A stretch of DNA of 63,725 nucleotides, counting the filler, from Folioceros fuciformis (lineage: Eukaryota), in NCBI GenBank assembly GCA_049999805.1. It is 19 parts of 19 records of this genome, joined end to end, with 100 filler letters (N's around TTAATTAATTAA, not from the genome) between each part and the next. Parts side by side here need not be neighbours in the genome. Positions count along the whole stretch, not along the records: positions 41,767 to 48,945 come from JBNGIO010006568.1; 18 more parts are not named here. One strand, 5' to 3'. Of this stretch, positions 7,774-60,244 are shown piece by piece. A model generated the notes under the pieces. That model searched no databases, was not told the origin of the DNA, and saw nothing but the letters and a program-made list of their open reading frames with translations. Each line of letters starts with the position of its first letter. Position 1 is the first letter of the stretch. The translations under genes and the position numbers were made by a program.

Positions 7774-7789
7774 GGGGCAGTCCAAGAAC

Positions 7790-14839: not shown

Positions 14840-17800
14840 ATGGAATTGCTGGCACGTCTCAGGCTCATTGCTATCGGCTCTGGCACAAGCGGAAGAAGAA
14901 TATGTCATGTAGTAGGTATGTTAAGCTTCTTCGTAGGGTAACGACCGACGCACATGGCCCAGCTTATTCTGCCAAGCCTACCTTCACGAGCCTCCGGTAA
15001 CTAATTGGATCCTGCGTGTAGAAAGAACATTGCGCTGGGTGATGTCAGAAAAGTGGTCTAATTTTCCAGGACTATTGCTGAAATGGTTATCTGCCAGGGC
15101 AGATGGGAAGGCTCAAAATGTGAAGCTTATGTGTGAGGAGGGAAGTCTAGAAGAGGTTTTGAAGGTGCTGCAGCTCAAGGACCGAGAAGGTGTGGTGGCT
15201 TCTGTCGAAATTTATGGATGGCTGCTGCAGGGGTGCATGAAGAGGAAAGCTTTGGCTCAGGCCAGGAAGGTGCATGCTCTGATTTGCAAGGACGGGCTGG
15301 AGTCGAACAGATCACTTGGCAATACTCTGGTGAACGTGTTTGTGCATTGTGGAAGCCTTTCAGATGCCATCCAAGTTTTCAACAGATTGCTCAGACGGAA
15401 TGCTCATTCATGGACTGCTCTCATTCTGGGGCACATCAAGAGGGGGCAATTCAAGGAGGCTCTCAGAATGTACCATCAAATGCAAGAGGAAGGTTTCAAG
15501 CCAAATAAGTTTACTTTGGTGGGGGTCCTGAAGGCTTGCGCAAGCTTGTTAGACCTGAAAGAGGGCAGGCTCATCCATGCTGAGGTTACTAGAAGCAAGC
15601 TGGAGTCTGATTTGTATGTGGGCACCACACTCGTGGACATGTATGCAACATGTGGGAGCATGGTGGATGCACGGCATGCGTTTGACACGTTGCCTAGCCG
15701 CGATGTGGTGACATGGAATGCCATGATAATTGGTTATGCGCAACAAGAACAAGGCGAGGAGGCTTTGCAACTCTTTGCCAAGATGCAGCAGGAACGGGTA
15801 CAGCCAAATGATCGCACCTTTGTAAGTTTGCTCAGAGCATGTGGTAGTCTAGCATCCGCTGAGAAGGAGACACTGATTGACGCCCAACTAGTCAAAGTGA
15901 AGGCTCTCCAAAAGGGCAAGGACATTCACTGTCAACTTGCTGCAATGGGCTATATTTCAGATCCTTTTGTGGGCAATACTTTGGTTGACATGTATGCAAA
16001 GTGTGGAGATCTGCTTGAAGCTCGTGCAGTCTTTGATAGTCTGCCCCAGCGTAATGCCGTAACATGGAATGCTATGCTTACAGGATATGCTCAGCAGCAA
16101 CAGGGCAAGGATGTCCTGCAACTCTTCGAAAAGATGAAGAAGGAAGGGTTCAAGGCAAATGATCGAACATTTGTGAGTGTTCTGAATGCATGTGGTAGCC
16201 TTGCTGCTATGGAGTTGGAGACCACTGTAGAGGGGCAATCGATCAAAGTCAATGCACTGGCGCAGGGAAAGCAGATTCATGAAGAAGTTTATGAAGCAGG
16301 CTACCTTTCAGACCCATTTGTTGGTAACACGCTTGTGGACATGTATGCGAAATGTGGAGACATGGTGGAAGCACGACGCGTGTTTGACAGTCTGCCTCAT
16401 CGTGACGTAGTATCATGGACAGCAATGATAATTGGATATGCACAACAAGAACAGGGAACGAAGGCTTTGCAGCTGTATGATGAGATGCAAAAAGATAATG
16501 ATATTCAGCCGAACAAACGCACGTTCGTAGGTGTGCTGAAAGCCTGTTGCAGCCTGGCAACAGTGGAAGGAGATACGCTCGTGGATGGACAACCTAATGC
16601 TCTGCAGCGGGGAAGGGCAATTCATGCTGAAATTATGACACAAGGTTATCAGACAGATACATTTGTGGGCAACACACTGGTTGCCATGTATGCCAAATGT
16701 GGAGACCTTATCAAAGCAACGCAAGTGTTTGACACTTTACTGCACCACGATGTCGTGTCTTGGAGTGCAATGATCACAGGTTACACCAAATGCGAGCATG
16801 GTGAGATGGCTTTCCAGTTATATGCCGAGATGCAGCAAGAGGGAGTGAAGCCAAACGATATTACTTTCATCTCGTTGTTGAAAGTTTGTGGGAGCATGGC
16901 GTCATTCGAGGAGGAGGCAACGGTGAATGGCCAGTTCTTAAAAGCAGGTTCCCTTGAAAAATGCCGGTTGATTCATTCAGATCTTCAAAGACATGGTTAT
17001 CAGTCTTCCCTGTTTGTATGCAGTACGCTCATTGACACGTATGCAAAGTGTGGAGACCTCATGAAAGCACGGGAGGTTTTTGACACAGTACCCTCCAGGG
17101 ATATAGTGTGCTGGAATGCGATGATTGCCTCATATGCTCAGCAGAAGCAGGCTGAAAAGGGCATGCAGCTGTATGTTACGATGCAAGACAAGGGCGTGAG
17201 GCGAGACGAGGCTACTTTCCTGTGCATCCTGAGGTTATGCAGCAGCGTGGGATCTCTGGAAATGTGCAGGAAGATCCATCAAGATATTTTGGGGAGTGGA
17301 ACAGAGAAGAGATCTATTGTAGCAACCACTCTGATACACGCTTACGGCAAGTGTGGAAGTATGGTAGATGCACGGCAAGTATTCGACACTTTGGCTCCGC
17401 ATGACGTGTGGACGTGGACTGCACTGATCACGGGCTATGCCCGACAAGGTCAAGGGGAACTGAGCTTACAGTGCTTTGAGGAGATGCAGCGGGCAGGTGT
17501 CAAACCAGACGCAGTCACATTTGTTTCTGTTCTTGCAGCTTGCAGTCATGCTGGGGCTGTCGTCAAAGGTTTTCACTACTTCACATCCATGGCGAGAGAT
17601 CACCACATCGCTCCAACGCTCGAACACTATGCTGGCCTGGTTGATCTCGTAGGCCGTGCCGGATTGTTCAAGGAGGCTGAAGACATCCTCTCCTCAATGC
17701 CAATGCAGCCAAATGTCGCAATGTGGCTGGGTTTGTTGGGGGCATGCAGGATGCATAACAACGTTGAACTTGGCAAACGTGCCTTCCAGGGGGCGGTGGA

Positions 17801-18050
17801 TTTGGAGCCAAAACAACGAGCGGCGTACTTGTTGCTGTCCCAAATCTATGCCCAAGCTGGCATGTGGGAGCAGGCTAGGCTTATTGAGCTGGCGGCAGGC
17901 AGCGCAGGTGCGTGGAAGAGACCTGGCAGAAGTTGGATCGAGAAGGCAGGACGCGTACATGCCTTCTCGGTTGGAGATAGAACCCATAAACAGAGCCAAC
18001 AGCTATATGCACTACTACAGGACCTGAGCTCGCAAATGGAGGAGGAATGA
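14840..18050 (+). CDS. PLS-class PPR protein with E/E+ C-terminus, no DYW (organellar RNA-editing factor); probable exons 14840-14915 and 15022-18050
   Basis: Repeated P-L-S triplets (GNTLVDMYAKCG, DVVSWTAMI), E motifs, and a PG box WKRPGRSWIE..VHAFSVGDRTH. A 106-bp GT-AG intron adds an in-frame Arg-rich N-terminus (MELLARLRLIAIG..). Confidence 0.93.
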
Positions 18051-33984: not shown

Positions 33985-36900
33985 TTAGCAACGAGACTTT
34001 CTTACATCTCCTCGAGCACATGATTTGTTGTAGTGGGAAGGCTGCTTTTGAGATGTTGCCACCACCTGGTGTCCTTCCTTAGCAACTGAACAAGGGCTTC
34101 TCCTCATAGCAGAAAAACGGGTGTCATGGACTGGAACATTCTGGGCACTCTCAGTGGGTCTGTTCACGATGTCATGCTTGGATGACCCTGATCTCCTCCT
34201 AAACAGCAGATCACCTTGAGTGGAATGATCGGCTAACTTGCTGCCACCCATGGTCCCAAAGCAGGGCCTCTTGCACGGCGGAGTTAACTCTGAGTCTTCC
34301 AACTCCCTTCCAATGCCCAATGTGCGCCGTCGTCTTAGCTTTGTAGAACTTGTTGAGTCCCTTGAACACGCGTGCGTGGGTGACACCTGTGATGCCTTCG
34401 ATGAAGGATTCTCGAGCAGCAACTCTTCTTCCAAGTCTAAAGGACATAATGCAAAAGCCTTTTGCCTTACGCTCATGTGCCTTTTGCTCCTTTTGCCCTT
34501 GATTGGGATATTATCCTTCGCCTCTGGCCCTGGACTATCAGCTGCAATCTTCGAAATGTCTTTGATATCCTCAGCCGGCGGCAAAGGAGAACGACTTAAG
34601 AGATGTACAAAATCTACCATCAACTGTTGTGAAGCTAGTGAGATCACATCATCCGAGTTACTGGCTGAGCTCTCTGATTTCCTCAGAACAGCTTCCTCTG
34701 GACTGCCCCGGGCCTCACTCGAAACCCTTGAGCCACTAAAATGAAGCTCCTGGAAGCACCTCTTTGTCGAGAACTTGTCAGGAGTAAGACTACAACAACT
34801 GAACAAAGGCCCGTTTGATGGTTGAACATCTATTCTCTGTCTCTTGCAAGCCCTCACGAGTTCCTCTGGCTCCTCGAGTTTCACCTCAGCCATATCATGG
34901 TTGTAAGCACCGCAAAGGACTTGAGCACCTCTTAGCAGCTCCACCATGTAATTACCCACTTCATCTGGTACCATAGGTTCCCTCTTAACTGACTCATAGT
35001 CAGGTGCATTATGCTTTAAAGATAGCTGAGATGTGGGGCCTAGCTTCCCACACAAAGCTTGAGACGAGGAGCCTTGAACTGTTACAGAGGTCAGCTTGGA
35101 AAGTGTGCTGGGTTTTCCATCATCAGGCAAGCAAGATCCTAGCTTAGCTGACTCACAGGAAACTCCGACAGTACACTCTCGGTATAAAGATAGCATGCTG
35201 CTGAAAATGCCTCCCGCTTGACACCAGCTTGCAGAAGGTCTCTGAAGGGCCCGCTGTGGTGAGGCCAACGACCTCAGAAGAGACTGACTGGCCTTCTGCC
35301 CCAAATTCATAATGGCTTGCGTGTAAACTTCATCCAGAGGCTCGTCCTTTCCATCCACAGGCTTACGGCCGCAATACAGAAGAAGGTTTTGGCATGAAAC
35401 CTGCTGGTCAGAAAGCGAGCTACTAACCTCACCTGAAACCTGCTCATGACCTGCTGCAGCTACCCGACCCTCACATGTATCCTTGTCTTCCCTTCGACAA
35501 TCTTTATCTTGGCCTTCCAATGCTGGATCTGGCGAAATGTTCGTCGTTTCACTGTCAGTTATCTCATCATGGCAGCTAGCAGATAATTCCTGTTGAGACA
35601 GTGAGCCTGTTGTTCCTGCCAGAGTTGAGTCGACGGAAACTATACCTGGATTTTCCAGCCATTCGGGAGTTTTGGCAACAAGATTTAGAACCTCACTAAC
35701 CGAAGTGAAATAATCAACACCTTTCACGGAAGAGCCCTGGGAAAATTTATGATTCGGTACCAAGAAGAGCGAGGTAGATCTACGTCTAGAAGATACAACC
35801 TTTCTCTCCATCTCCTCAGACTGCCATCCCCTAGCTAGCAACCGTGGCCATACAGCTTCTAGGAACAGGTTCTGTGCCCGAGCCTTACTCATTCTACAAT
35901 CACCAGTGAGGAAAGCCACGACTTCCTCCTTTGTAAGGTTCGAGCAAGCTTTTCCTGCAGGTATTTCCAGCCGTGAGGGTGTTGGATCCATGTGTCCACC
36001 AGTCAGGTCCTGCTTTCCGGAACCAAGCCCAATCGCAAGGACCAAATTTCCTAATCCTGCAGTAGCCTTCAGGCGAAAGACGAAGTCCTCAAATGACATT
36101 CTTCCACTGTTGAAAGATTGGACATCCTGCACAGCAAGAAGTTCAGATAGTTAGCAGGACCCTACGACAGGCAATAACTACAAAGCATATCCTCTCCAAT
36201 GCGGCAACAAACAAAGCCATCTACATCTAGGTAGCAACTGATAAGCCTTGCATCAACAATTAAGAGCTTCCTGGACAGCTCAGTACGAACCTCAGCAAGT
36301 GCAGATTTTGCAGTGTCTAGAACAGAAGGAGACAGCCGGTCAAGAAGCTGTTCTTGCCGCCAACCTGTAACCAAGCTTGACCCGTTTACACACCTGCCCC
36401 TGTTTCTCCTTGCTCCCAACCATCGCCTGTAGCTCGCTGATCCATGGAACTTGCTGTAGTAAAAGTGCAGAACATCCTGCATGTCCTTCTGCCCAACAAA
36501 TGTCTTTACCATATAGAAGTCCTTGCCAAAGAGATACAGGCCCACTGTAAAAGCCTTGACGTCATTCTCATCCCAGGGGCAAGTCATGGTACCGGGCACC
36601 AGAATCTGGTTGCTCCCAGATGTTTCCTCGCTTGCCTGATTCAATTTGCTCATACTAGTCTCCCTTTTAGCCTTGACCTTCTTTACCCTCTTCCACCCAG
36701 CCCGTCTCCTCCTCCTTTTCTTCACCGTTTCTACCCTTTTGTCATTGCCCGAACCACAAATGGCAGCTCCCACCTTTTCGGTGCCTCCCACATGAGTCCC
36801 ATCCCTTTGATCAGTCGAGGGCTCAGAAACTTGTTGAGCATTCTCATCTGAAAGACAGCTCTGCAATGTGTCGGACCTACCTTCCGGAAATTCAACTTTA

Positions 36901-37313
36901 ACCTGAACTGGAACTGGGCATGGTACCTCTTCAGTGGTCGGCATTGTGTCAACACTACAGGCGCTACTCCTTGAACTAGACACTACAGCGGTTCTAGATT
37001 TTGCTGCGTCCGCTTGCTGTGTTGTCTGAATTAGCATCAAGGGCACTGATAACCCATACGCGAAGGCACGCTCCTCAACATCCATAGAATCTGTCTCACC
37101 TTCATCCTCTCCATCCTCGTTCGCGTAACAGCTGATGTTGAGATCAAACTTTGCCACAATTGGCTTGTACGGCAGAACTTGGCATTGATGCCTAGCTCCT
37201 ATCGCAGGGCGGAGTCTCTGCTGAGCGTTGCTTGAGACGCAACAGGCGCTGGATGAGTTCCTCAGCAGGGATGGATTAAGCGCTTCCCTGGAGTTGTTGG
37301 TATCCTCCATCAT
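33985..37313 (-). CDS. SANT-domain protein (At2g47820/At1g55050-like); exons 37313-36291 and 36126-33985
   Basis: RPAIGARHQCQV (ELM2-like), WDENDVKAFTVGLYLFGKDF..FYYSKF..YRRW (SANT), LFLEAVWPRLLARGWQSE and GVDYFTSVSEVL family motifs; a GT-AG intron joins the frames. Confidence 0.85.
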
Positions 37314-39114
37314 CTTGTCAATACCAAGGTCACGTGACTTGTCCTGACGCAGAGGCTGATGCGAACGCTTACATTCTTAGCCAATCGTCCATCCAGTGGA
37401 TTTCTCCTGACACCTACATGGAGCAGCATTGGAAGGAACAAAGTGAGCCCACTGCACAGGGATCGGAACACAAGACCGTCCTACTTGTCCCCAGCTTACA
37501 CTCGCATCACCTAACATGAACGGTAAAAGCAGTGTCTCCCCCACAGAAAAAGGACAGATTGCGGAAGTCCAACTTGAGCACCAATTTCCAACCGCAGGAT
37601 TTCCAGCAAGCTACGCAACCCAAGACGTTCTTTGACAGTGCAGTGAGCCATCCCGTTTTCTTGCGTGATCGCAAGTGACAGATCCAGCATTTTCAGGTTC
37701 CTACAGCAGTAGCGCCTCCTCCATGAGTCCATGACTGCCCGAAACCAAGGAAGGACCACGAGAATTGATTCCGCTCTGTCGTACCGGACAGCCCGGATTG
37801 GATTGCGACACTAAACCAACCCACCGCAAGGCTATCATCCAGGCCCCGACGGATTCACATACAATGACACAGAGAGGTAGAGAAAATGAAAGAAGCGTCC
37901 TGGAGGCTGAGCACCCACTAGACAACAAGCTCAGCAGCGATTGCTTCCCCCGAGGTAATCCATATTCCATCCAACAGATCTTGCAAAATTTGGCAAAGCT
38001 ACAGGCAGTCAGGCAGGCAAGCGTTGCAGCGCATTCCAAATGCATAAGTGGCCGGATGTGGTGCACTGGGCACCCAATTGGCAATCGCAGCCCCCAAGTT
38101 CCAGGATCTGCAGCAGCTAGCAGCAAGCAGCAAAGCAGCAATTCCACACTCCCCTCATGCCATTGGCGGATGAATTGGCACATCTGCAGCCGAATTACCT
38201 GCGGGCAGCAGGCTTGCAGCAAGCAGGCGCTGCGGCTGTCATTCCCCAGCTGCTGCAGGGGACAGCGACTGGCTGTGCAGCGTGATATCCCTGGAGCAGA
38301 AATAAAATTAGGCGGCAGAGGAATTGCAGCCTGCTCCCGCCTGGCCAGCCTGCCCCAATGGTGCACGCGGCTAGCGCATCCGGAGATGCTTCATGTGCCT
38401 GGTTTGTGGTCCGTCAAAGGTGGACTGTCTCGTCCCTTCCCCGTCTCGTCCTCGTCTCGCTCGCTCTCGCTCGCTCTCGCTCTCGCTCTCTCCTCTCCTC
38501 TGGGCTCACACTGGCTCTCTCTTTTCTTCTTTGTCTCGCCTGCTGTTTCTCTCTCTCCCGAGTCGCTCCTCGTGGCCAGGCCTGTCGTCTGGGTCGCGGC
38601 AAGGCAATTTAGCTGGGCATTCCATGCTATGAGCCGGCGCTGTATCATGGGCATCACAGATCATGCTACCACTGGTAACGTGTTTCGTCACTCATCCCCT
38701 CGCATATTCAACCGACATACGCCGCTGTCCGTGTCCGTTCCAAATGGAGCCAATATTATCGACGCCACAAAATTGCCAGGAAGTTGACATCGGGAACCCC
38801 GTTCCAACCCCCTTCAATGTCAAATACCTGTTCACCAATGCAAGTACACTACATATGTACATACACTATGTGCTTTAAGTTGTTATTATTCATATCTAAA
38901 TGGTTTTTGAGGTTTCCAGATTTTTATGTCGTGCCTCTTATTGGGTAGGTTCTCATAGAAAAATTTGTCAACATAAATAAGTTAAGTGATTATGGTATGT
39001 AGACCCTTCTTTCTTTGAACACCATGATATCGCGGGTGCTATAGGTAGCTTTCAGGTTGTGCACGTAGCTTGGGTGTTAGGCTTGCGGTCACGTATGGTG
39101 GTTTAGGGTTTAGG

Positions 39115-41666: not shown

Positions 41667-42174
41667 NNNNNNNNNNNNNNNNNNNNNNNNNNNNNNNNNN
41701 NNNNNNNNNNTTAATTAATTAANNNNNNNNNNNNNNNNNNNNNNNNNNNNNNNNNNNNNNNNNNNNTAATTGTTTTATAGCAATTGGTCTACACCAATTT
41801 CCATATTTTCTCATGGTATCAGAGCAAGGTTTAGGTGTAGATTACACTTGTGATAATGCACATTAAAATCTGCACATTCTGATGTGCAGAACAATATATT
41901 TTGTTTATATGTTTTATTGTTGTTTTCTTTTAAAGAAACTATTTTAAAACATACTTCAAGAAATAGGTTTATAGCTTTCTTGATTTTATATTTAGAAGAT
42001 TTGCACTTCTAGTAGATTGTTCTAGTGTATCCATTGTTAGATTGCACTCTAGTAATCTGGCACTAGGCACGCTAGAACAACTGCAAGAATTGGCAAATAT
42101 TTATTTATAGAATCATTCACAAAGTTACAAATGTTTCTTGAAAAATAACAAAATACAAAAGCTTGGCCAAATGA

Positions 42175-42882
42175 ATGGCCAATTTGGTGGACGGGCAGCA
42201 ATGGTGGCCACGCCCTGCTGAGCGCATCCAACAGAGGAATGCCCACAAAGGACAACGAATTCAAGAGGGCAGGCTGACTTTTGCAGAATCACTTCACCAT
42301 CAAACCCTGGATTGGATTCTTCAAACACAAGACCAGCCTGAACAATCCCGGCTTGTGAGAGATTCCTTCAACAATCTGCTTGAGGCTATCTTCCCACAAC
42401 AGCGCCATTTGTTGCTTCATCCACCACCCAGGAATCAAATTAATCTTCCACCTATTGTAAATGGTAACCCTAGGGGTTTCCTGACAACACATACATCACC
42501 ACATGTTAGTGTGTCACAATTAAATGCAAGAATAGAAACACTTCAACAGCATGTTGACAAGCGTTTCCATAGCATTCGTCACAAGATAGCTGAAGTCAGT
42601 GTTGACTTGCAAGATTTGAAGGAACGTTTAGGACATTTGGACTTCAAGTTGCTTACCTTGCTTAAGCCCGTTTTGCTAACAAATCCTGCATTCAGAGGTG
42701 TTGCTTGCAAACGTGCTAACAAGAATTATAAGCAACACACCTTTGACGTTCCAAATTCCTGTCCTTCATGCTCTGTTTATGCATTTAACAGATGGGAGAT
42801 TAGACATCAAAGGATAGAAAATAGATTAGCAAATCAACAGGCCAATTTACCTCAAGTTGGTAGATTTGCTCACCCCTTGTAG
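42175..42882 (+). CDS. Accessory ORF upstream of gag (235 aa; coiled coil plus C..H..CxxC)
   Basis: Intact ATG-to-stop ORF between PBS and gag, with heptads LNARIETLQQHVDKRF..LQDLKERLGHL followed by ACK..H..CPSC. Confidence 0.6.
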   Translation: MANLVDGQQWWPRPAERIQQRNAHKGQRIQEGRLTFAESLHHQTLDWILQTQDQPEQSRLVRDSFNNLLEAIFPQQRHLLLHPPPRNQINLPPIVNGNPRGFLTTHTSPHVSVSQLNARIETLQQHVDKRFHSIRHKIAEVSVDLQDLKERLGHLDFKLLTLLKPVLLTNPAFRGVACKRANKNYKQHTFDVPNSCPSCSVYAFNRWEIRHQRIENRLANQQANLPQVGRFAHPL

Positions 42883-43036
42883 ATAGGGCTGCTCCTGCAG
42901 TTTATCTAAGATGCAACAGTAGCATCTTACCTCTTCCCAATCTTTCTCTTCAGTTTGTACCTTGTCTAGATAGGCTACAAAGCTGCATACAGCCATTTCT
43001 CCTAACAGTTAGGATAGAATTACTACATTCTAATAA

Positions 43037-46000
43037 ATGGTAGACACCACTACTGTAGTTGGTGATATTTTTAAGGAGAAAGATAGATTTGGGGGGACTG
43101 ACTATGACATCTGGGTCATGCGTATGAAAGGAGCCTTACAAAGTAAGAAGCTATGGAAGATAGCAACAGGAAATGAATCACTTCCAACACCTACTGCATC
43201 TTCTGAATCTTCTCCTTCTTCTGCTAAAAAAAAGATACCAAGAAGCTTGGTATACAAAGGATGAAGCTGCAATGCACCTGTTGAGAAGTGGACTAACCTC
43301 TGACATGCTGCGACAGACTTCTGGCTGCAATACATCTTTTGAGATATGGACCAGATTACATGAGCTGTACGCAGGTGTTAATACCACAAGTCAGATGATA
43401 GCCCTTCGCAACATTTAAAATTGCAAAATGAGAGAAGGGGAGACAGTTGAAAAACATGTTGGGCATTTTAGATCACTTGTTTCTAAGTTAGAAAGTGCTT
43501 CACAGGAGGCTCTATTTGATGAGCTGCTTACCTTGTATTTCATGATGTCTCTCCCTGACTCATGGTCACACTTTGTGACACCTTACAATGCTTCTCAGCT
43601 ACAGGCTTCAAAGATAGCTAAGGCTGCAGGTGTCACAATACCACAGACAACATTTTTTGAGTTAGTGGGAGCTCTTCTTCAGGAAGAAGCTACAAGAGGA
43701 CAAAACAGGCGTGCTGGCAAGCAGCAGGATCTTTACACCACAAATAAAAACAAGGGCGCGAGGCCCAACTTCAAAGGTAAACAGAATACCTTTCAAGGTG
43801 CTGGTGCCTCACGGCGAGGGACAACACAGAAGAAACCCAAGAAGTCTGGAAAATGCCACTGGTGCTAGATTCTAAGACATTGGGAAAATGAATGTCGAAA
43901 GAAGCAGGCCGGAGTACCTCGCAAGGAGGGCAACTCTACTTCTGAGACACATGTTGTGGTGAAAACGCAAGGCTCACCTTCTGCCCTTACAGTAGGGATT
44001 AGGAAGTTTGCATATCCTCTTGTTAACCCCACCTGTTTGTCTGCAAACACACAAGGTAAACCAGTCAGCGAGTGGTACCTTGATACAGGTGCAACAGTGC
44101 ACATATGCTTTGACAAAAATGCCTTTGTCACATACGAGTTAGTAGACAATCAGTTTGTTTACTTAGGTGATGACAGATCACTAGTGTCTCCAGGCAGAGG
44201 CACTGTAGAAATTCCAGTCCCTTCTGGAGTTACACTCATATTGAAAGATGTGTACTATGTTCCAGAAATGACTAGGAATCTCATCTCTGTTAGGAGACTC
44301 AACATGGATAGTAATACTTACATCCTGTTTACTCCTACAGAGTGTAGGATCATTGATGCCTTTGACCATGGTAAGATCCTAGCTTATGGGTCATCCTCAC
44401 ATGACCTCTTCCGTCTGCATACAGACAGCTATACAGCACAAACACATTTAGCTTCTAAGTCTACAGAATCTACTAGTAAGTTAGAAGACAAAGCTAAATT
44501 ATGGCATGCTCGCCTAGGTCACCCACATAGTGCTAAGTTACAGAAACTTGCACATAGTGACCTGTATGCTGATGGAAAAATTGGCACATTGCCACCCTTA
44601 CCTCTTTGTGAAGCCTGTGNNNNNNNNNNNNNNNNNNNNNNNNNNNNNNNNNNNNNNNNNNNNNNNNNNNNNNNNNNNNNNNNNNNNNNNNNNNNNNNNN
44701 NNNNNNNNNNNNNNNNNNNTACCTCTTTGTGAAGCCTGTGTTTTCTCCAAACGTCATCAAGCAACTTTTAAGAATAAAGCTCCCTACAGGGCTTCAGAAG
44801 TTCTTGAGCTGGTTCACACAGACATCTGTGGACCTCTCCCACAGCCTTCAATTGGTGGAGGCAAATATTTCCTGACATTCACAGATGACAAAACGAGGTT
44901 TGTCATTGCTTATATCCTCAAAGCCAAAAGTGAATGCTTTTCTCTCTTTAAAGGATATATGAAGTACACAGAACGCTAGACTGGCAAGCAGTTAAAAACC
45001 CTCAAATCAGATAATGGAGGTGAATTTACTTCTAGTGAATTCCAATCTTTTTGTATAGCAGAGGGAATAGGAAGGCAACTCACAGTTGTGTATACACCAC
45101 AGCAAAATGGTGTGGCAGAACACTTGAATATGACCTTGCAGGAAATGACTTCCTCTATGCTTCATCAAGCTTCTCTGCCCCTTCGCTATTGGGCTGAAGC
45201 CCTCATGACAGCAGTATACTTGCATAACAGGCTGTCTACCAATGCCCTTGTAGGACAGACCCCCTATGAAGCATTCTTTGGCAGAAAACCAGCTATCTTA
45301 CACCTTAGAACCTTTGGATGCATAGCTTATGCATTTATCCCAAATAAGAAACGTCCTAAGTTAGCTGCTAAAGCCAAGAAATATCTTATGATAGGCTACA
45401 CTGAAGGTATTAAAGCATATAAATTATATGATGTACCTGAGAACACTGTGGTTTATGCCCGCAGTGTTACTTTCGATGAACAACAAGTTTGGCAGCCAGT
45501 GGGAGCTTCTCCCACTTCTTCAGATAACTTTGATTTATCTGCTCTTCCTAACATCACTGTTTTCCCTGATTACCCTAATGAGGAGTTTGCTCCTGAAAGG
45601 GGGGAAGACAACGAGCATAGTGATAATGAGGATAATCAGCAGAAAGCTGCAGATGCTAAACTTGATTTTGCTGCTGATATTCAGGACCAACCTCCTCATG
45701 CCTTTTCGGATCCTGAACCCATTGTTCCAGCAGATGTTGACCTTGATCCTAATCCTGCTGTTCTTGTGGATAGTGATCCTGAGAATATTCCAGTTCCTAT
45801 TGAAGAGCCAGCTCCTATCCCTGTGCGTTGTTATCCTGCAAGAGACAGACGTGCACCAGATTATTATCAATCAGAAGACTTTAGGGGACCTTCCATACAT
45901 GCAGTTGATCTTGATCCTGTGGAACCTCAGACTTATGAAGAAGCCTTAAGTCGCCCTGACGCTGCTGAATGGAAGAAGGCCATTCAATTTGAATATGATT

Positions 46001-47520
46001 CTTTGATAAAAAATGGAACATGGGAGTTAACTAAACTACCTCCATGACGCAAGCCAATATCTTGCAAATGGGTGTTTAAGCTAAAGGTCAAGGCAGATGG
46101 TGCCTTTGATCGTTATAAAGCCAGGCTTGTAGCCAGAGGCTTTTCTCAAATACCGGGCCTTGACTACCTTGAAACTTATGCTCCTATTGTTAAGCTGGCC
46201 ACATTTTGCACTATCTGTGCATTGGCAGCACACAATGATTATGATTTGGACATGTTTGATGTAAAGACAGCTTTCTTACATGGAAAGCTGGATACAGAAA
46301 TTTACATGCAACAGCCACAAGGATACGAGGTGAAAGGGAAAGAAGATTATGTCTTACGTTTAATCAAGACCCTGTATGGTCTAAAACAATCAGCTCTTGA
46401 ATGGAATGTTGTCTTGGATGAAGAGCTGCGAGCATTAGGCTTTGTCAGATGTGTCTCAGATGGGAGCCTATATGTATACAAGACAAATGAAGTGGTTTGT
46501 TACCTGGCAGTATACGTTGATGACCTCATATTGGCTTGTAACAGTCCCACCTTCATCAAAGACATGAACAAGCTATTATCAACCAAATTTGAAATGACAC
46601 ACTTAGGTGCCTTACAGAGCTGTCTTGGTATTCTAATTCAGCGTGACAGAAAGAAGAGAACTATCTCATTAACACAGCCACGTTACCTTCTTAGTAGTGC
46701 GGAACAACTTGGATTGAAGGATGCTAAACCTTCTGCAACTCCTTTGCCTTGTGGACTGAAGATGAGTAAAACCATGTGTCCTGATACACAATTAGAAAAA
46801 ATGAAGATGAGTTTAGTCCCTTACAGACAAGCTGTAGGCAAACTCAGATATGCAGCTAACACCACTAGGCCAGAAGTAGCTTATGCTACTAGTGTCTTAT
46901 TACAGTATCTGGAAAACCCAGGGCAAACACACTGGACAGGTGTTAAGAGAGTTTTCAGGTATCTGAAAGGAACTCACAGCATTGGTGTAAAATACAAGCA
47001 CATACCTAGAGTGCCCTTACATCTTGATGTCTATACTGATTCAGACTATGCTAGAGATATAGACACAAGGAAATCAATTTCTGGTTATGTTGTTATGTTG
47101 GTTGGAGGACCCATTTGCTGGTCCAGCAAGAAATAGCCTACTGTAGCCCTATCTAGCATTGAAGCAGAATATTGGGTACTTACAGCTACTGCAAAGGAGA
47201 TAGCTTGGTGCAAGCTGATGTTCAAGGAACTTGGAATTCCCCTTCCAGCCTGCACCACAATCCACACAGATAACCAAGGGTCAATGAGCTTGGCACATAA
47301 TCCTGTTTTTCACTCCAGGACTAAACATGTGGAAGTTGAGTATCACTTTATACGTGACCTTATCAAGTCTGGAGATATCAGCCTTGAATATGTGCCTACG
47401 TCTGAAAATCCAGCAGACATTTTAACCAAGCCCCTAAGAAGGGAGGTACATGAAAAACACATGAGAGTACTTGGCATGGGAAGACATGAAGGCAATCCCA
47501 CTGCCATGTCTAAGCCCTAG
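43037..47520 (+). pseudogene. Copia gag-pol with several stops and a gag frameshift
   Basis: FGGTDYDIW, CHWC*ILRHWENEC, WYLDTGAT, WHARLGH, HTDICG, SDNGGEF, YKARLVARG, YVDD, YTDSDY, ADILTKPL. The N-gap at 44620-44719 is flanked by a duplicated 21-mer, so it is probably spurious. Confidence 0.95.
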
Positions 47521-47529
47521 CCTACCAGG

Positions 47530-48602
47530 CTATTCATAACCCCAATCAGGGCTATCATCATTGTCTAAATCTCCATGAAGAGATTTAAAAGAACCCCTAC
47601 TCTCTGAGGTGGTGGAATCACCAAGCTTCTCCCATGAAGAATATTCCACAGTGTCAGAGGAAAAGACTTCATTCTCCGAACGAGGAGACTGTCTCTTCTT
47701 CCTCTCCTTGTAGGAGATTCTGTCCTTAGATTCCAAGCTTTGCTCCTCCTCCAGTCGCTCTTTAGACCCTGTGAGGAGACAATGGGAGCAAAGTCAGACA
47801 AGTGATGATAATCAGCAGGGGGTTAGGAAACAATTATGCCACAAGCTACCATCAGCAAGAGGCTTACTGTAGAAGCTGATCATGTGGCCTGTACACTCCA
47901 AAAACATTTCAACCCTCACTCTCTTCATGGTGATGCTAGAAACTTGGCACTTGCACCACAGCGGGCTGCCCGACACTTCCCAAGTACCAGGTGTGATCAC
48001 CTTGGTCTCTGACATGACGTTGCTTGGAACTGGAAATCTGGGTGGAACTGGAGGACGTTGGTCAGCACCTTTGTACTCGAACTCACCTCGATTGAAGCGC
48101 CTCTGTTCCACAACAGCCCGTGAGTACACGAGCTCATGAATGCGGCTCCTGGATAGGCCGCCCATAGCCCCGGCTCTCGAAGATTCAGCAGTCCTAGCCG
48201 CCGTCCTCCCTTGTGCTGTGCCTGAACCTTTGCCCGCATCCACAGCGCCTGAAGAACGTGTTGCTGGAGTTGGTGTAATCTGGCCAGCAGTCTTCCCACC
48301 TCTAATGCTGGAAAGACGAAAGCTTGGAGGGGAGACGGAGAGTCCGGATGTCGCGATGTCGCGCCGCTGGCTCAAGCTTGCTCTGGTAGTGCCTCGCGGC
48401 CGCCCCCGCGGTCTCCTTACGCCGGTAGCTCCTCCTCCTCGTGTGTGTGTGTCTCTAGCTGCTGTGCAGGTTGATGCTCTTCCGCCCGTGCTCCGATGGC
48501 AGTTGTTCTAGCCACATGCGATGTGATGAACCTTCCTGTAGATTCCCGCTGGTATGTGCGCCGCTTGGCTGCTAGAGCATCATCAGACCCTGAAGACGCC
48601 AT
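47530..48602 (-). pseudogene. Antisense accessory ORF of copia-2 (AT-hook-like plus Cys/His cluster), disrupted by one frameshift and two stops
   Basis: ATG at 48602, frameshift reparable at (GT)6 48441-48452, RRPRGRPRG, WCKC..ECTGH..WHNC..PC*..*LCSHC, final stop at 47530-47532. Confidence 0.55.
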
Positions 48603-49047
48603 CGTTACTTTCCTCAGCCTTCGCTCAACGAGCTTTATTGCCAAAAGGCATGGGACGTAAATAGCAGCTACAAGAAGTGCGAACCTGTAGACGGTCGCCT
48701 TCACACATAGCAGCTCCACCTTGAGCCTACGCCCCAAAGTACACACAAGGATCGCGAGGTTCTCAGCTGGAGTCACAGTCTCCACAACTCTAAACGTAGT
48801 GGAGGGGAGGCAAACCGACCCCATAATGATTAACAAGTGGGAGTGATGAGAATAGGGTGTTAATACATTAGGTTTCGTTTAGTGAATGCGTTCATAGTTA
48901 CTATAAGTCTAGGTGCCCGTTCATTTGGGTTACGTCCTTTATGAANNNNNNNNNNNNNNNNNNNNNNNNNNNNNNNNNNNNNNNNNNNNTTAATTAATTA
49001 ANNNNNNNNNNNNNNNNNNNNNNNNNNNNNNNNNNNNNNNNNNNNGG

Positions 49048-52775: not shown

Positions 52776-52875
52776 NNNNNNNNNNNNNNNNNNNNNNNNN
52801 NNNNNNNNNNNNNNNNNNNTTAATTAATTAANNNNNNNNNNNNNNNNNNNNNNNNNNNNNNNNNNNNNNNNNNNN

Positions 52876-54459
52876 GTGTTGCCGGCTGTACAGTGTCTGG
52901 TAGGATCGCGGGCAGCGTGTTGCCGGTTGTATAGTGTCTGGTAGGATCACAAGGTGTAATGACCAGGGTGTAGGGGCTTGCCCCTAGCTCTTGATTGTAA
53001 AGGGTGTGTCTTTCTCTCAACCTGTCCACTCTTGTTCCTTGCTTGGTCAAGTGTTGTAGGCCGGCCATGTCTCATGGTGTCTGGTAAGGTTGTGGGGAGG
53101 AGATACCCAAGAGGGGAGTGTGTTCCCTTCGTCCTTTTGTTTGGAGTTAGTCTAGTGACTCTTGCCGGGTAGGAGGAGTCCGTAGGGAAGTGTAGAAGGT
53201 AGTGGTGTCGTTGCTGGTTGCTCGTAGTTGTTGGTGTTGGTGCTGGAGTAAGAGAGTGAGTGAAGTGAGTGAGGGAAGTCACAGATCTGAGAGGTTAGGG
53301 TCGTTGTAGTGACTGGAGTGAGTTTGTGGGCACCGAGAGAGGTGCAGCTGACCGCCGGACAGCGAGGCCTGTCCTACGCCTGATCGGAGCTGGAGGGGAG
53401 CCCTCGAATCCATCATCGAGTTGATCAAGTCCGACCCTCCATCTACAGCAGCAAGGAACCCCATCGCTCCTTCGTGGGAACGAAACCCAATGTCTCAACG
53501 ACAGTGGGATAAGTGTGGCCACTAAAGGTGGAACCTGTCGGCAATCAGTGCCCGGGGTTTTGCCTCCACATCTTCGCTCAGAGTACCATATAAAAAGGCG
53601 GTTTTGACGTCGACTTGNNNNNNNNNNNNNNNNNNNNNNNNNNNNNNNNNNNNNNNNNNNNNNNNNNNNNNNNNNNNNNNNNNNNNNNNNNNNNNNNNNN
53701 NNNNNNNNNNNNNNNNNGTGTTGCCGGCTGTACAGTGTCTGGTAGGATCGCGGGCAGCGTGTTGCCGGTTGTATAGTGTCTGGTAGGATCACAAGGTGTA
53801 ATGACCAGGGTGTAGGGGCTTGCCCCTAGCTCTTGATTGTAAAGGGTGTGTCTTTCTCTCAACCTGTCCACTCTTGTTCCTTGCTTGGTCAAGTGTTGTA
53901 GGCCGGCCATGTCTCATGGTGTCTGGTAAGGTTGTGGGGAGGAGATACCCAAGAGGGGAGTGTGTTCCCTTCGTCCTTTTGTTTGGAGTTAGTCTAGTGA
54001 CTCTTGCCGGGTAGGAGGAGTCCGTAGGGAAGTGTAGAAGGTAGTGGTGTCGTTGCTGGTTGCTCGTAGTTGTTGGTGTTGGTGCTGGAGTAAGAGAGTG
54101 AGTGAAGTGAGTGAGGGAAGTCACAGATCTGAGAGGTTAGGGTCGTTGTAGTGACTGGAGTGAGTTTGTGGGCACCGAGAGAGGTGCAGCTGACCGCCGG
54201 ACAGCGAGGCCTGTCCTACGCCTGATCGGAGCTGGAGGGGAGCCCTCGAATCCATCATCGAGTTGATCAAGTCCGACCCTCCATCTACAGCAGCAAGGAA
54301 CCCCATCGCTCCTTCGTGGGAACGAAACCCAATGTCTCAACGACAGTGGGATAAGTGTGGCCACTAAAGGTGGAACCTGTCGGCAATCAGTGCCCGGGGT
54401 TTTGCCTCCACATCTTCGCTCAGAGTACCATATAAAAAGGCGGTTTTGACGTCGACTTG
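52876..54459. repeat. 742-bp segment duplicated across a 100-N gap; contains a 41-bp tandem unit and a copia RT motif on the minus strand
   Basis: 52876-53617 matches 53718-54459. gtgttgccggYtgtaYagtgtctggtaggatc occurs at 52876 and 52917; the minus strand from 53617 reads QVDVKTAFLYGTLSE. Confidence 0.85.
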
Positions 54460-54559
54460 NNNNNNNNNNNNNNNNNNNNNNNNNNNNNNNNNNNNNNNNN
54501 NNNTTAATTAATTAANNNNNNNNNNNNNNNNNNNNNNNNNNNNNNNNNNNNNNNNNNNN

Positions 54560-56873
54560 TTCCGAGCAGCTGATGGCTTCCTTATATGATAGAGGCTCCC
54601 CTAGGTTATCTGGTGTGCCATCCGTTTGTACCAAGAACGAACCGTACGTCAGAGGTGGTGTCTCCCATTTTGCAGGTGAAGAGGTATGTCTTCTCCCACT
54701 CCTACGAGGCTGTTCAGTTTCTGTAGGAGCTGATTGGGTGCTCTCACCTGCATCCAGTTCTAACGCTTGCTGATAATTGCCATCAGGAACCCCAGTGTAA
54801 CTATTGCCACTCCCACTGCTACCGGCACGACTGCTGCTTGCACCATTACTGTCAACCTCACTTTGTTCTTGCACCGGTACCTCGTCATCATCGTCATCAT
54901 GGAACATGCTTGGTATAGTGTCATGTGTTAATGGTGGCACATAAGGAGCAGGAGGAGGAAGACTCAGTGATTGGTACGTACCCTCATTGTTGTTTTCATA
55001 GTTCTCATAATCATAGGGTTCAATTGCTGCAACTTCTTCCAGTGAAAGTGGTTTGTAGGGTTCAGGTGGGAAGGTCAGCAGCGACTGCTCATCGAAGATC
55101 ACGCTTCGGCAGTGTGTAGTTGTTCTGGCATCTGGATCGAACAGCTTGTACCCCTTGATGCCCTCCGTATAGCCTACAAAGACGTATTTCCTTGCCTTGT
55201 AGTCCAATTTGACTCTTTGGTCCTCAGCCAGGTCAGCATATGCTGAAGATCCAAACACTCTAAGATGATTTATTCTGGGTTTGTGTGAAGTCCAGCACTC
55301 GAAAGGGGTAGAGCCTGTGTAGGCACTTGTTGGGATCCGATTTCGGATGTATACAGCTGTTGCAACTGCCTCACCCCAGTAGCCACGTGACGTCTTGCTT
55401 GCTGCAGCATTGTTTCTGCTATTTCCTGCACGTGTTTGTTATTAACCTCAGCTATGGGGTTCTGCGCAGATGTATACGGGGTAGTAAGCTGCCTACCAAT
55501 TCCTTGGCTTTTGCAAAAATCATCGAAGGAATCAGAGGTATATTCACCCCCATTGTCACTTCTCAGAACCTTTAGCAGCTCTCCAGTTTGCCTCTGGGCA
55601 TAGTTTACATATTCTGTGAAACATCCAAGTGTCTGACTCTTCTGCTTGATAAGATAGACCACCGTATGTCTGATCCAGTCATTGATAAAGGACAAGAAGT
55701 ATTTTGCCCTGCCAAATGAAGATGTTGACATGGGCCCGCAGATATCTGAGTGCACAAGCTCTAGAAGCTTTGTGGCACGTGTTGGATTGCTGTCCTTGAA
55801 TGGAGCACGATGGTGTTTGCCAAAAACACATGCGTCACAAAATGGCTTGTCTGCTGCAATTTTCACCTCGAACTTCTCCCTGTACAGTGACGGATTGTTC
55901 ACCATGTACTTGATCTTGTCGAAGTTGGCATGTCCCAGCCGACAGTGCCAAAGAATGGTGTCTCTTTCTGCTTGTTTGGCTTGGCTGAGGTTGACTACTA
56001 GACCTCCCAGCTTGTACTGGATGTCAAGCTGATACAGGTTATGGATAGGTGTCCCTATTGCCACGACCTTGCCCTTTGACTGCTGGTCTGTTATATGACA
56101 TTCACCTCTAGCAAAAGTTATGCTAAGCATGTGCTGTGTGTCAAACAGATATAAAGAGACCAGGTTCTTCACCATGGCTGGCACATGAAGAACATCAATC
56201 AGGTCTATTGTTGCACCACTTGTGAGTAGGACTGGAACCTTTCCTACACCAGCAATGGGTAACCCACGATCATCCCCTAGCAGGACGACCTGACCTCTTG
56301 GTATTTTGCGATACTCAGAAAAGGCTGCAAAAGTATGGCATACATGTGTAGATGCACCCGAGTCTAGATACCATGCGTGCTTAAACTGAGGTGTAGACAC
56401 CGTGTAAACTGCAAGTAGGGTTGGAGATTTCCTGAGCACAGTGTTTGCCTCAGGTGGAGCAGTACGGCGAGGCTCTCCTGCCTTTTTCTTGCGGCAGTCA
56501 GCCTCCTAGTGTCCAGGAATGAGGCACCAGTTGCATGGGCCTTTCTTTTTTGCTGCAGGAGCTGTAGGGCGCCGTTTGTAGTTTGCATTGCTTGCATTGT
56601 TTTGATGTTGAGAAGCTTGCCGGGGTGGCTGCCTTCGAGGGCCTCTGTTAGTGTAGAGTACCCTACTTGAGGTCTCTCCCCTGGAGGAGGTACCACCTTT
56701 GCTGGCGTTTCTCGTGGACTCCTCCTCCAGGAGGGCTCCAATGAGATCAGAAAGTGTCACTGTAGGAGTCTAACCTGCAGGTGTGGCCTGAGCCACATTC
56801 TGAGATGCGTACAATGATTACTCACAAACACCCTGTAGCTGTCTGGCAACGACAAGAGAAGAGCAACTGCTGC
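54560..56873 (-). mobile_element. Copia family 3 fragment: gag C-terminus, protease, integrase (disrupted)
   Basis: CNWCLIPGH*EADC, WYLDSGAS, WHCRLGH..CDAC, HSDICG, LRSDNGGEY. Confidence 0.92.
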
Positions 56874-56973
56874 NNNNNNNNNNNNNNNNNNNNNNNNNNN
56901 NNNNNNNNNNNNNNNNNTTAATTAATTAANNNNNNNNNNNNNNNNNNNNNNNNNNNNNNNNNNNNNNNNNNNN

Positions 56974-58877
56974 TCTCTTAAGGTACGTGTCGATTCGATT
57001 ATACCAGGCTCGAGGTGATTACTTCAAGCAGATTGTCTTTATTAATCTGCAGACCTTGTTAGGATGAACTGGATCCTGGAAGCCCTCCGGCTGTCTCATG
57101 TAAATCGTCTCTTCTAGGTTCCCGTTCAAGAACACAGTTTTAACGTCCATATGTTCCATGACATAATCCCGCTGGGCTGCAATAGCAAACAATGTACGTA
57201 CAGACGTAACCCTTACTACAGGGGAAAAAGTTTCAGTATAGTCAAGTCCTTCGACCTGATTGTATCCCCTTGCAACAAGCCTTGCCTTGAAGCATGCGAC
57301 GCTTCCATCTGCAGCAAGTTTCTTCTTGAAGACCCACTTGTAGGTCACTGCCTTCCTATCCTTTGGTAAGTCCACCAGTTCCCACATGCCATTGTCAATC
57401 AATGACTGATATTCAGAATCAATGGCATCCTTCCATTTAGCTGCTTCCGAGCAGCTGATGGCTTCCTCAAATGATAGAGGCTCCCCTAGGTTATCTGGTG
57501 TGCCATCCGTTTGTACCAAGAATGAACTGTACGTCAGAGGTGGTGTCTCCCATTCTGCAAGTGAAGAGGTATGTCTTCTCCCACTCCTATGAGGCTGTTC
57601 AGTTTCTGCAGGAGCTGATTGGGTGCTCTCACCTACATCCAGTTCTAACGCTTGCTAATAATTGCCATCAGGAACCCCAGTGTAACTATTGCCACTTCCA
57701 CTGCTACCGGCACCACTGCTGCTCGCACCATTACTATCAACCTCACTTTGTTCTTGCACCGGTACCTCGTCATCATCGTTATCAGGGAACATGCTTGGTA
57801 TAGTGTCATGTGTTGATGGTGGCACATAAGGAGCAGGAGGAGGAAGACTCAGTGACTGGTACGTACCCTCATTGTTGTTTTCATAGTTCTCATAATCATA
57901 GGGTTCAATTGCTGCAACTTCTTCCACTGAAAGTGGTTTGTAGGGTTCAGGTGGGAAGGTTAGCAGCAACTGCTCGTCGAAGATCACGCTTCGGCAGTGT
58001 GTAGTTGTTTTGGCATCTGGATCGAACAGCTTGTACCCCTTGATGCCCTCCGTATAGCCTACAAAGATGTATTTCCTTGCCTTGTAGTCCAATTTGACTC
58101 TTTGGTCCTCAGCCAGGTGAGCATATGCTGAAGATCCAAACACTCTAAGATGATTCATTCTGGGTTTGTGTGAAGTCCAGCGCTCGAAAGGGGTAGAGCC
58201 TGTGTAGGCACTTGTTGGGATCCGATTTCGGATGTATACAGTTGTGGCAACTGCCTCACCCCAGTAGCCACGTGACAGTCTTGCTTGCTGCAACATTGTT
58301 TTTTGCTATTTCCTGCACGTGTTTGTTATTAACCTCAGCTATGGGGTTCTGCGCAGATGTATATGGGGTAGTAAGCTGCCTGCCAATTCCTTGGCTTTTG
58401 CAAAAATCATCGAAGGAATCAGAGGTATATTCACCCCTATTGTCACTTCTCAAAACCTTTAGCAACTCTCCAGTTTGCCTCTGGGCATAGTTTACATATT
58501 CTGTGAAACATCCAAGTGTCTGACTCTTCTGCTTGATAAGATAGACCACCATATATCTGCTCCAGTCATCGATAAAGGACAAGAAGTATTTTGCCCCGCC
58601 AAATGCAGATGTTGACATGGGACCGCAGATATCTGAGTGCACAAGCTCCAGAAGCTTTGTGGCACGTGTTGGATTGCTGTCCTTGAATGGAGCACGATGG
58701 TGTTTGCCAAAAACACATGCCTCACATAATGGCTTGTCTGCTGCAATTTTCACCTCGAACTTCTCCCTGTATAGTGACGGATTGTTCACCATGTACTTGA
58801 TCTTGTTGAAGTTGGCATGTCCCAGCCAATAGTGCCAAAGAATGGTGTCTCTTTCTGCTTGTTTGGCTTGGCTGAGG
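56974..58877 (-). mobile_element. Copia family 3 fragment: integrase and RT (second, slightly diverged copy)
   Basis: Nearly identical to 54560-55990 and 59625-60144, with scattered substitutions and different frameshifts. Confidence 0.92.
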
Positions 58878-58977
58878 NNNNNNNNNNNNNNNNNNNNNNN
58901 NNNNNNNNNNNNNNNNNNNNNTTAATTAATTAANNNNNNNNNNNNNNNNNNNNNNNNNNNNNNNNNNNNNNNNNNNN

Positions 58978-60144
58978 CAGATGTGGACTTCCTTGTGTCA
59001 GTGTCCGACGCCCAGTCGGCATCAAAAAACCAGGTCAACAGTAAGTTTTCATGACGCTTCTTGTGCAGCAAACCCAGTTTTGGTGTGCCCTTTAAGTAAC
59101 GCATGACCCTCTGAACTGCTGTCCAGTGAGATGTGCCATAGCAAGTCAGAAACTGTGTAGTTACTCCCACTGCGTGCGATAGGTCTGGATGTGTCCAGTT
59201 CCTACAGTAAATCAAAGAGCAGACAACTGATCTATAGGGTACTTTCTCCATTTGCAATCGTTCGTCCTCAGTCTTAGGAGACTGTTCCATGCTTAACTTC
59301 TCTCCCACAGCCATCGGGGTAAGAGCTGGCTTACAGTCTGTCATTCTGTATCTTGCAAGGATTTGACTAACATACTGCGCTTGGTGAATTAGCACAGTAT
59401 GTGCTGCAAGATCTTGCTGAATTTCAATGCCTAGGAACCAGGTGTGCCTGCCCAGATTTGACATGGAGAATTCAGAGGTGAGAATACCTTTCACCTTGGC
59501 TGTTGACTTTGGGCTGCTGGATATGATAACTGCATCATCCACGTACAGGGCTAGGAACACAATACCATCCTTGTCCTCCAGCTTATAGACATTCGAGTCT
59601 GCTTCACTTTGATTGAAGCCAGATCTCTTAAGGTACGTGTCGATTCGATTATACGAGGCTCGAGGTGATTGCTTCAAGCCATAGATTGTCTTTATTAATC
59701 TGCAGACCTTGTTAGGATGAACTGGATCCTGGAATCCCTCAGGCTGTCTCATGTAAATCGTCTCTTCCAGGTTCCCGTTCAAGAACGCAGTTTTAATGTC
59801 CATATGTTCCATGACATAATCCCATTGAGGTGCAATAGCAAACAATGTACGTACAGACGTAACCCTTACTACAGGGGAAAAAGTTTCAGTGTAGTCAAGT
59901 CCTTCGACCTGACTGTATCCCCTCGCAACAAGCCTTGCCTTGAAGCGTGCGACGCTTCCATCTGCAGCAAGTTTCTTCTTGAAGACCCACTTGCAGGTCA
60001 CTGCCTTCCTATCCTTTGGTAAGTCCACCAGTTCCCACGTGCCATTGTCAATCAATGACTGATATTCAGAATCAATGGCATCCTTCCATTTAGCTGCTTC
60101 CGAGCAGCTGATGGCTTCCTTATATGATAGAGGCTCCCCTAGGT
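58978..60144 (-). mobile_element. Copia family 3 fragment: RT and RNaseH start
   Basis: FKARLVARG, MDIKTAFLNG, YGLKQSPR, LYVDD, FDADWASD. Confidence 0.93.
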
Positions 60145-60244
60145 NNNNNNNNNNNNNNNNNNNNNNNNNNNNNNNNNNNNNNNNNNNNTTAATTAATTAA
60201 NNNNNNNNNNNNNNNNNNNNNNNNNNNNNNNNNNNNNNNNNNNN

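Follow-up and report, generated by a model that had tools for sequence, protein, structure and literature searches.

An antisense open reading frame between pol and the 3' long terminal repeat of a plant Ty1/copia retrotransposon family: a candidate accessory gene in Folioceros fuciformis

Can a plant Ty1/copia retrotransposon carry an accessory gene on the strand opposite to gag and pol? The question is raised by a stretch of 63,725 nucleotides from Folioceros fuciformis (assembly GCA_049999805.1), here called the window, in which the contig at positions 41767-48945 (JBNGIO010006568.1) represents a decayed member of a multi-copy family of Ty1/copia retrotransposons. About 1.3 kb of internal sequence separates the pol stop of this copy from its polypurine tract (PPT), and about 80% of that interval is occupied by the candidate antisense gene, an open reading frame (ORF) at 48602-47530 on the minus strand, opposite in direction to gag-pol and flanked by the pol stop (47520) on one side and the PPT (48834) on the other. 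Judged from sequence comparisons, this frame may well be an antisense accessory ORF, specific to its lineage, in a family of plant Ty1/copia elements; this reading is given a probability of roughly 0.5.

On the minus strand, the ATG at 48602, with A at -3 and G at +4, opens a frame of 61 codons (MASSGSDD...) that runs into an (AC)6 tract and stops at 48417. The main minus-strand frame is open from 48507 to a TGA at 47814-47812, a run of 231 codons; it passes a second TGA at 47796-47794 and then continues for 87 more open codons to a TAG at 47532-47530. The antisense stop is thereby 9 nt from the pol stop, and the antisense ATG is 245 nt inside the PPT. A preliminary description of this DNA, which took these pieces for the remains of a single antisense gene, had placed every landmark correctly (pol stop 47520, ATG 48602, the (AC)6 tract, TGAs at 47812 and 47794, stop 47530), and its interpretation as a whole is partly supported by the results below.

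The length of the main frame is above chance expectation. When the longest ORF was recorded in 2000 dinucleotide-preserving shuffles of 47521-48835, 231 codons were reached in 0.25% of them, and 263 codons, the length derived below for other copies of the element, in none (0/2000). The 87-codon tail taken alone is weak: shuffling its 291-nt region yields a run of that length in 6.5% of cases. The content of guanine plus cytosine (GC) in the post-pol region is 0.50-0.60, versus 0.38-0.48 in gag-pol, and this higher GC makes long chance ORFs easier to obtain through a lower density of stops. Repeats do not explain the ORF, the sole tandem repeat in the antisense region being 17 nt long, and Rfam has no family there, its only two matches being at chance level and located elsewhere.

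Other copies of the region come from two DNA runs, X1 and X2, both of the same organism and of one sample (six runs were examined), in the form of contigs rather than reads; contigs drop rare variants, and their depths are not copy numbers. X1 and X2 contain about half of the words of the studied stretch. Neither of these two is recorded as RNA, and X4, the one run guessed to be RNA, gave no match to the stretch. Their contigs were compared with the window copy over 47000-48945, and 40 of the 97 differences from the window copy were listed. One X1 contig (contig 4; 1057 nt, depth 53.7), which spans 47477-48535, differs from the window copy by 19 substitutions and by an AC tract that is shorter by two letters. 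The shorter tract makes up all of the depth at this place in X1 (53.7/53.7) and 23.2/34.8 of it in X2 (two contigs, 6.14 and 17.1), and it puts the ATG frame and the main frame in one frame. The preliminary description had predicted that removal of a single AC unit would fuse the two, and the abundant form in X1 and X2 has precisely that tract. The joined frame of the abundant form is 263 codons long to the first TGA, a length derived from the differences and not read from a sequence, and of the 21 differences listed within 47530-48602 not one introduces a stop into the antisense frame.

What happens in the antisense frame also happens in pol. The gag-pol frame of the window copy is damaged by a frame change at 43264-43419, by in-frame stops at 43866, 46045 and 47134 and by a gap of 100 N at 44620-44719; the stop at 47134 is a sense codon in 2/2 X1 contigs and in 4/4 X2 contigs. 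With its antisense frame broken at the AC tract and stops in its pol, the window copy is dead. As far as these contigs allow the comparison, the antisense frame behaves like pol, broken in the window copy and unbroken in the abundant form. The X1 contig has 17 listed differences, 11 of them transitions, and 9 of those 11 are A/T in the window and G/C in the abundant form, which is the direction expected if the window copy decayed by deamination. Several variant contigs overlap the same places in the region (for example, nine at 47954 in X2), and contig depth is 53.7 over the antisense region versus 71.8 over the pol end, depth not being a count of copies. A one-off segment, the outcome that the preliminary description had set against its own reading, is not what was found, the region being apparently a constitutive part of a multi-copy family that is present in an abundant form and in variant contigs. 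No second copy of 47530-48602 was found within the window by self-BLAST and tblastn. A deletion variant was also observed, one X2 contig (depth 7.74) that skips 360 letters in the antisense ORF (48129-48490).

How the main frame is connected to its tail depends on the two TGAs, which had been interpreted as sense codons lost by the window copy. Neither of them (47812-47814, 47794-47796) is among the 40 listed of the 97 differences, and the X2 contig that runs over both (47477-47953) has 10 differences, 9 of which are accounted for elsewhere; therefore the abundant form retains at least one TGA. At most one can differ there, and decay as the origin of both is excluded. It is plausible, from the signals that surround them, that the TGAs are better read as intronic. 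The candidate intron that contains both (Table 1) would end at an acceptor with 80% pyrimidines in the 20 nt before CAG/G and with CTGAC located 27 nt upstream, and would begin at one of two candidate donors, A/GTAAGC at 47867 (a 99-nt intron) or G/GTAGCT at 47849 (81 nt), both of which join in frame and leave 79 codons open. Donors and acceptor were judged against the splice consensus. The candidate intron is 37% T and 30% C, versus 23-27% T in its flanks. The spliced product would have about 325-330 residues, and its tail would carry an RKKR patch and an acidic end with a tryptophan and a tyrosine.

When codon usage is scored against the genes of the window itself, the proposed antisense frame comes out ahead in all three of its parts, mostly through its absence of stops; the tail, for example, has the best score of the six frames partly for having none. 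More specific is the proportion of purines at codon position 1, which at 0.64 in the antisense frame is the highest of the six frames and compares with 0.58-0.63 in the real genes of the window.

Several observations weigh against the coding interpretation. Computed without stops, the codon score of the main part is -0.004 versus 0.04-0.11 for the window's real genes, and codon position 2 has a GC of 0.64, which is atypical. A sense ORF overlaps the antisense frame, and in the abundant form, where its internal TGA at 48137 is a sense codon, it extends for about 200 codons over the same 600 nt. In the neighborhood of the TGAs, 70 of 368 GT..AG pairs leave at least 60 codons open; pairs that keep the frame are thus not rare, and frame-keeping alone proves little for the intron. 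Between window copy and abundant form the antisense ORF has 13 non-synonymous and 3 synonymous differences. This ratio is uninformative and was rejected as a test of selection, since at the pol end of the window copy 8/8 differences are non-synonymous (8:0); these are private decay changes. With respect to relatives, Pfam at E values up to 10 yields no family for the main ORF or the tail, TRP28/Transposase_28 included; a search of 5.8 billion clusters yields no relative among 2050 word-sharing candidates; nothing in the PDB falls below E 0.05; and metagenome contigs yield no match, an exact 26-mer scan with 0 matches included. HMMER against 1.84 billion representatives returns a single match (E 1e-6), to a bacterial MBG-repeat protein and confined to low-complexity sequence, which was rejected as a homologue, the low-complexity alignment being spurious. 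The recognition value in the protein atlas is 1835, below the 2300 that 91/100 known-family proteins reach. AlphaFold2, run without an alignment on the 231-residue ORF, returns a mean predicted local distance difference test (pLDDT) score of 39.9 with 0 residues at 70 or above, and the model, of too low a quality to search for similar folds, has only a weak hairpin at residues 208-230. The antisense protein looks largely disordered and basic.

These points also fit a second explanation, somewhat unlikely but to be taken seriously, in which the 3' internal region is non-coding, whether a GC-rich spacer or a cis-acting RNA region, perhaps containing an antisense promoter with an RNA-acting transcript, and the frames are by-products of composition and sequence history. 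GC well above that of gag-pol lowers the density of stops, long ORFs occupy both strands over the same 600 nt, the codon-usage score is about 0, and homologues, fold and strong atlas recognition are all wanting; in addition, antisense transcripts of LTR (long terminal repeat) elements may act as RNA through double-stranded RNA (PMC7264820). Composition alone, however, seldom produces frames of this length when dinucleotides are kept, and against a spacer also speak an ATG frame and a main frame that are joined in the abundant form, a tail frame that runs on to 9 nt from pol, and a purine excess at codon position 1 that is specific to the antisense frame. The ORF on the plus strand is read here as a shadow of the antisense frame, and it still keeps the composition-artefact reading alive.

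If the frame is a gene, the question of what kind of protein it specifies was answered by the preliminary description with a chromatin-binding accessory protein that has an AT-hook and a zinc-finger-like cluster. AT-hooks consist of an R-G-R-P core flanked by basic residues, and RRPRGRPRG is indeed present in the antisense ORF; Pfam has no AT_hook match there (short motifs seldom pass its filters), and the AT-hook stands as a motif only. The DNA beneath it is near-palindromic and the plus strand also reads PRGRPRG, so that with the same letters on both strands the motif is a lead and not a test. The zinc-finger-like cluster fares worse. Its cysteine and histidine letters are present as described, but WHNC..PC..CSHC is within the candidate intron or behind stops, the first cysteine of WCKC (47954) is tyrosine in the other contigs (1/1 in X1, 9/9 in X2), Pfam returns no zinc-finger family and nothing folds there in the AlphaFold model; a zinc-finger protein is accordingly rejected. 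The proposed chromatin-binding function is left unsupported, the features that point toward it being one AT-hook-like motif and one RKKR stretch.

The intron-like segment and the jump in GC relative to the rest of the element would also be expected if a fragment of some host gene or other element had been captured in reverse, intron included, by an ancestor of the family and copied along without serving the element, and plant LTR elements are documented to capture genes (PMC7264820). Captured genes are usually present in one or few copies (PMC7264820), whereas this region is in the abundant form and in several variant contigs; none of the searches matched it to a plant protein or any other, and, starting with an ATG of its own, it takes up exactly the interval from close to the PPT as far as the pol stop. 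Passive capture is for these reasons improbable, and an origin by capture would not in any case exclude a present function. That the sense strand is the coding one, with the plus-strand ORF a small SIRE-like extra ORF and the antisense frame its shadow, is very improbable: the abundant form has a sense codon in place of the ORF's only internal stop (48137), and post-pol sense ORFs characterise the copia lineage SIRE (PMC6317226), but the plus-strand ORF falls short of the antisense frame in length, is closed in by unchanged stops (47870 and, past the shortened AC tract, 48472), begins 350 nt after pol with stops in between, has a codon score of -0.036 versus -0.004 and purine at position 1 of only 0.52, and, searched with X at its stop, has no homologue and no Pfam family.

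Taken as an accessory gene, the antisense frame would start at ATG 48602, contain one short intron (47867 or 47849 to 47769) and stop at 47530. Transcription would proceed from a promoter of its own, situated either in the 245 nt upstream of the ATG or in the 3' LTR, and the antisense transcript would be spliced. An intron on this strand could survive retrotransposition because the spliceosome never meets it in the genomic RNA. The protein might enter the nucleus, bind DNA or chromatin, whether the element's own or that of its targets, and act in the manner of the antisense accessory proteins of Tat, Retand and Grande gypsy elements and of some retroviruses.

Among those retroviral proteins, HBZ of human T-cell leukaemia virus type 1 (HTLV-1) is a basic nuclear protein made from a spliced message. 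It would be similar to the present case in being the product of a minus-strand gene at the 3' end of a reverse-transcribing element, with splicing and a nuclear protein proposed here as well; it is dissimilar in that sequence and domains are unrelated, the bZIP domain is missing here and the host is a plant. The antisense promoter of HTLV resides in the 3' LTR (PMC7264820). The closer precedents are in plants. In the Tat clade of gypsy elements, antisense ORFs in the interval from pol to the 3' LTR are an established feature, examples being gene23 of Grande in maize, RIRE2 in rice, Retand in Silene and pvRetro13 in bean (PMC7264820, PMC11963269, PMC4093653), pvRetro13 being described as a gypsy element (PMC4093653). 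The Tat-clade antisense ORFs have no database relatives, the Grande product is nuclear, and a TRP28 domain occurs in 97% of Retand clusters (PMC7264820, PMC11963269). The frame described here resembles these antisense ORFs (aORF-3R) in its post-pol position, opposite orientation and orphan protein, and would resemble them further in a suspected nuclear or DNA-binding product, an assumed promoter of its own and presence in most copies of the family (here a depth of 53.7 versus 71.8 over the pol end, which is not a copy count). It differs in that the host element is Ty1/copia and not Ty3/gypsy, that the distance from pol to the LTR is 1.3 kb and not 2.9-6.6 kb, that Pfam detects no TRP28/Transposase_28 or SMC-like domain, that a candidate intron is present, and that it is known from DNA alone. 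What is new is thus the copia setting and the lack of TRP28; the place, the orientation and the orphan nature were already familiar from gypsy Tat elements.

Within Ty1/copia, the statement of the preliminary description that canonical elements lack such a gene needs qualifying. The REXdb survey (Neumann 2019, PMC6317226) reports extra ORFs of at least 250 codons in 582 plant Ty1/copia elements, in 45 similarity groups mostly without known domains, and the present frame is likewise an extra ORF outside the gag-pol of a copia element. Against the length and composition used in that survey (at least 250 codons, not tandem repeats), the window copy has 231 codons and the abundant form a derived 263. 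The literature search found no paper that describes a coding antisense ORF in a copia element, although the additional files of PMC6317226, which list extra ORFs by lineage, may hold cases. The only copia lineage singled out in the text of the survey is SIRE, with a sense ORF after pol (PMC6317226). The env-like ORF of SIRE/Sirevirus elements (eORF-3'F) is comparable in being an extra post-pol ORF of plant copia, and in SIRE a fast-evolving one without conserved domains; it is on the sense strand, unlike the antisense ORF, and only the short plus-strand ORF would resemble it.

If the coding interpretation is true, antisense accessory genes would have arisen independently in both superfamilies. 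The copia element, compact and equipped with an ORF ahead of gag as well as a short antisense gene that bears an intron, would then be a small, tractable system for learning what the extra genes of plant LTR retrotransposons, obscure in role even among the familiar gypsy elements, contribute to: transposition, targeting or escape from silencing. Should the frame prove not to be expressed, it is a warning that GC-rich spacers of transposable elements can hold long ORFs on two strands.

The ORF ahead of gag, ORF0, is statistically stronger than the antisense ORF. The leader from primer binding site to gag is unusually long at 1.2 kb, and the 235 codons of ORF0 were reached in 0/2000 shuffles. 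ORF0 has no Pfam family and no homologue, it is predicted as long helices at low confidence (pLDDT 54.5), and it may be a second accessory gene of the same copia family. A fuller scenario, speculative and on the doubtful side, would combine two lineage-specific genes: ORF0, encoding a helical, coiled-coil-like protein, and the antisense, intron-bearing gene, encoding a disordered nuclear AT-hook protein that would tether or shield the chromatin of the element, for targeting or for anti-silencing. Such a pair would give copia its own equivalent of the antisense genes of Tat/Retand elements and of the retroviral antisense proteins, would have arisen de novo or by capture, and would have been kept since an antisense intron is immune to loss by retrotransposition.

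The assignment of the element to Ty1/copia is based on its domains and their order (features in Table 1). Pfam identifies Retrotran_gag_2 (E 9.1e-8), rve, SH3_retrovirus (7.6e-25) and RVT_2 (1.7e-56) in gag-pol, in the copia order, with integrase upstream of reverse transcriptase: rve and SH3_retrovirus are in the ORF at 44980-46047 and RVT_2 in the ORF at 46048-47136, in the same frame. The nearest protein-atlas clusters of the reverse transcriptase are Streptophyta RVT_2 proteins (score 0.96). The 5' LTR terminates in ...TTCTCA at 41813, and TGGTATCAGAGC at 41814 is presumably complementary to the 3' end of the initiator tRNA-Met. A complete tRNA-Met primer binding site is used by most plant copia elements (Neumann 2019, PMC6317226). 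The two LTR pieces in the contig, 47 nt of one and 99 nt of the other, do not overlap and hence permit no pairwise comparison, and a direct-repeat search for LTRs in the window returned only artefacts of the N linkers. At the edge between PPT and LTR, contigs of the DNA runs have loose ends at 48820 and 48849 and contig depth climbs from 53.7 to 313.

Table 1. Features of the Ty1/copia copy at window positions 41767-48945
Feature	Position	Strand	Remarks
5' LTR end	41767..41813	+	last 47 nt, ending ...TTTTCTCA; contig begins here, after N linker
Primer binding site TGGTATCAGAGC	41814..41825	+	directly after 5' LTR ...CA
ORF0, 235 codons	42175..42882	+	sense, between primer binding site and gag
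gag-pol	43037..47520	+	copia-type domains; stop TAG 47518-47520
Candidate exon 2	47530..47768	-	charged tail SKERLEEEQ...RKKRQ...DDSPDWGYE; stop TAG 47532-47530
Candidate intron	47769..47867	-	putative; acceptor ...TTTGCTCCCATTGTCTCCTCACAG/GG at 47769; contains both TGAs
Antisense main part	47850..48440	-	R/G/A/S/T-rich; hydrophobic stretch near its end
Overlapping sense ORF	47873..48511	+	88 + 123 codons; one internal stop TGA 48137
AT-hook-like motif RRPRGRPRG	48391..48417	-	single occurrence
(AC)6 tract	48441..48452	-	site of frame change in window copy
Antisense N-terminal part	48453..48602	-	ATG 48602-48600, context acgATGGcg
Polypurine-tract-like AAGTGGGAGTGA	48834..48846	+	directly precedes 3' LTR
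3' LTR start (TGAGAATAGGG...)	48847..48945	+	TGAGAA mirrors ...TTCTCA end of 5' LTR; cut by contig end

A third run, X3, differs from the window copy over 47000-48945 almost exclusively by C>T and G>A, with loose ends that are devoid of C or devoid of G; the pattern suggests a bisulfite-converted library made from the same sample, which could reveal the methylation state of the element.

The window itself consists of 22 short contigs chained by linkers of the form N44-TTAATTAATTAA-N44 or by gaps of 100 N; as a chain of separate contigs, it says nothing about linkage between features on different contigs. The contig that carries the antisense ORF is preceded and followed by N linkers (41667-41766, 48946-49045) and has one internal gap of 100 N. 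Ty1/copia elements are also present on other contigs, at 7766-12121 (+) and 54512-60196 (-), and are unusable as comparators for the 3' antisense ORF because their post-pol ends are cut by contig ends. Elsewhere the window has an intronless ORF of 1037 codons for a PLS-class pentatricopeptide-repeat protein with E and E+ motifs (14937-18050, +), which together with the Streptophyta affinity of the reverse transcriptase indicates a land-plant host, a protein kinase gene on another contig, and two neighboring long ORFs with DUF7952 and DUF7650 domains (33985-37376, -). Two pairs of contigs look duplicated: adjoining contigs of 742 nt each, in which 52832-53131 and 53674-53973 are 100% identical over 300 nt, and the contigs at 5547-6127 and 6228-6808, of 581 nt each and equal GC. 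Such paired contigs of equal length are probably assembly redundancy.

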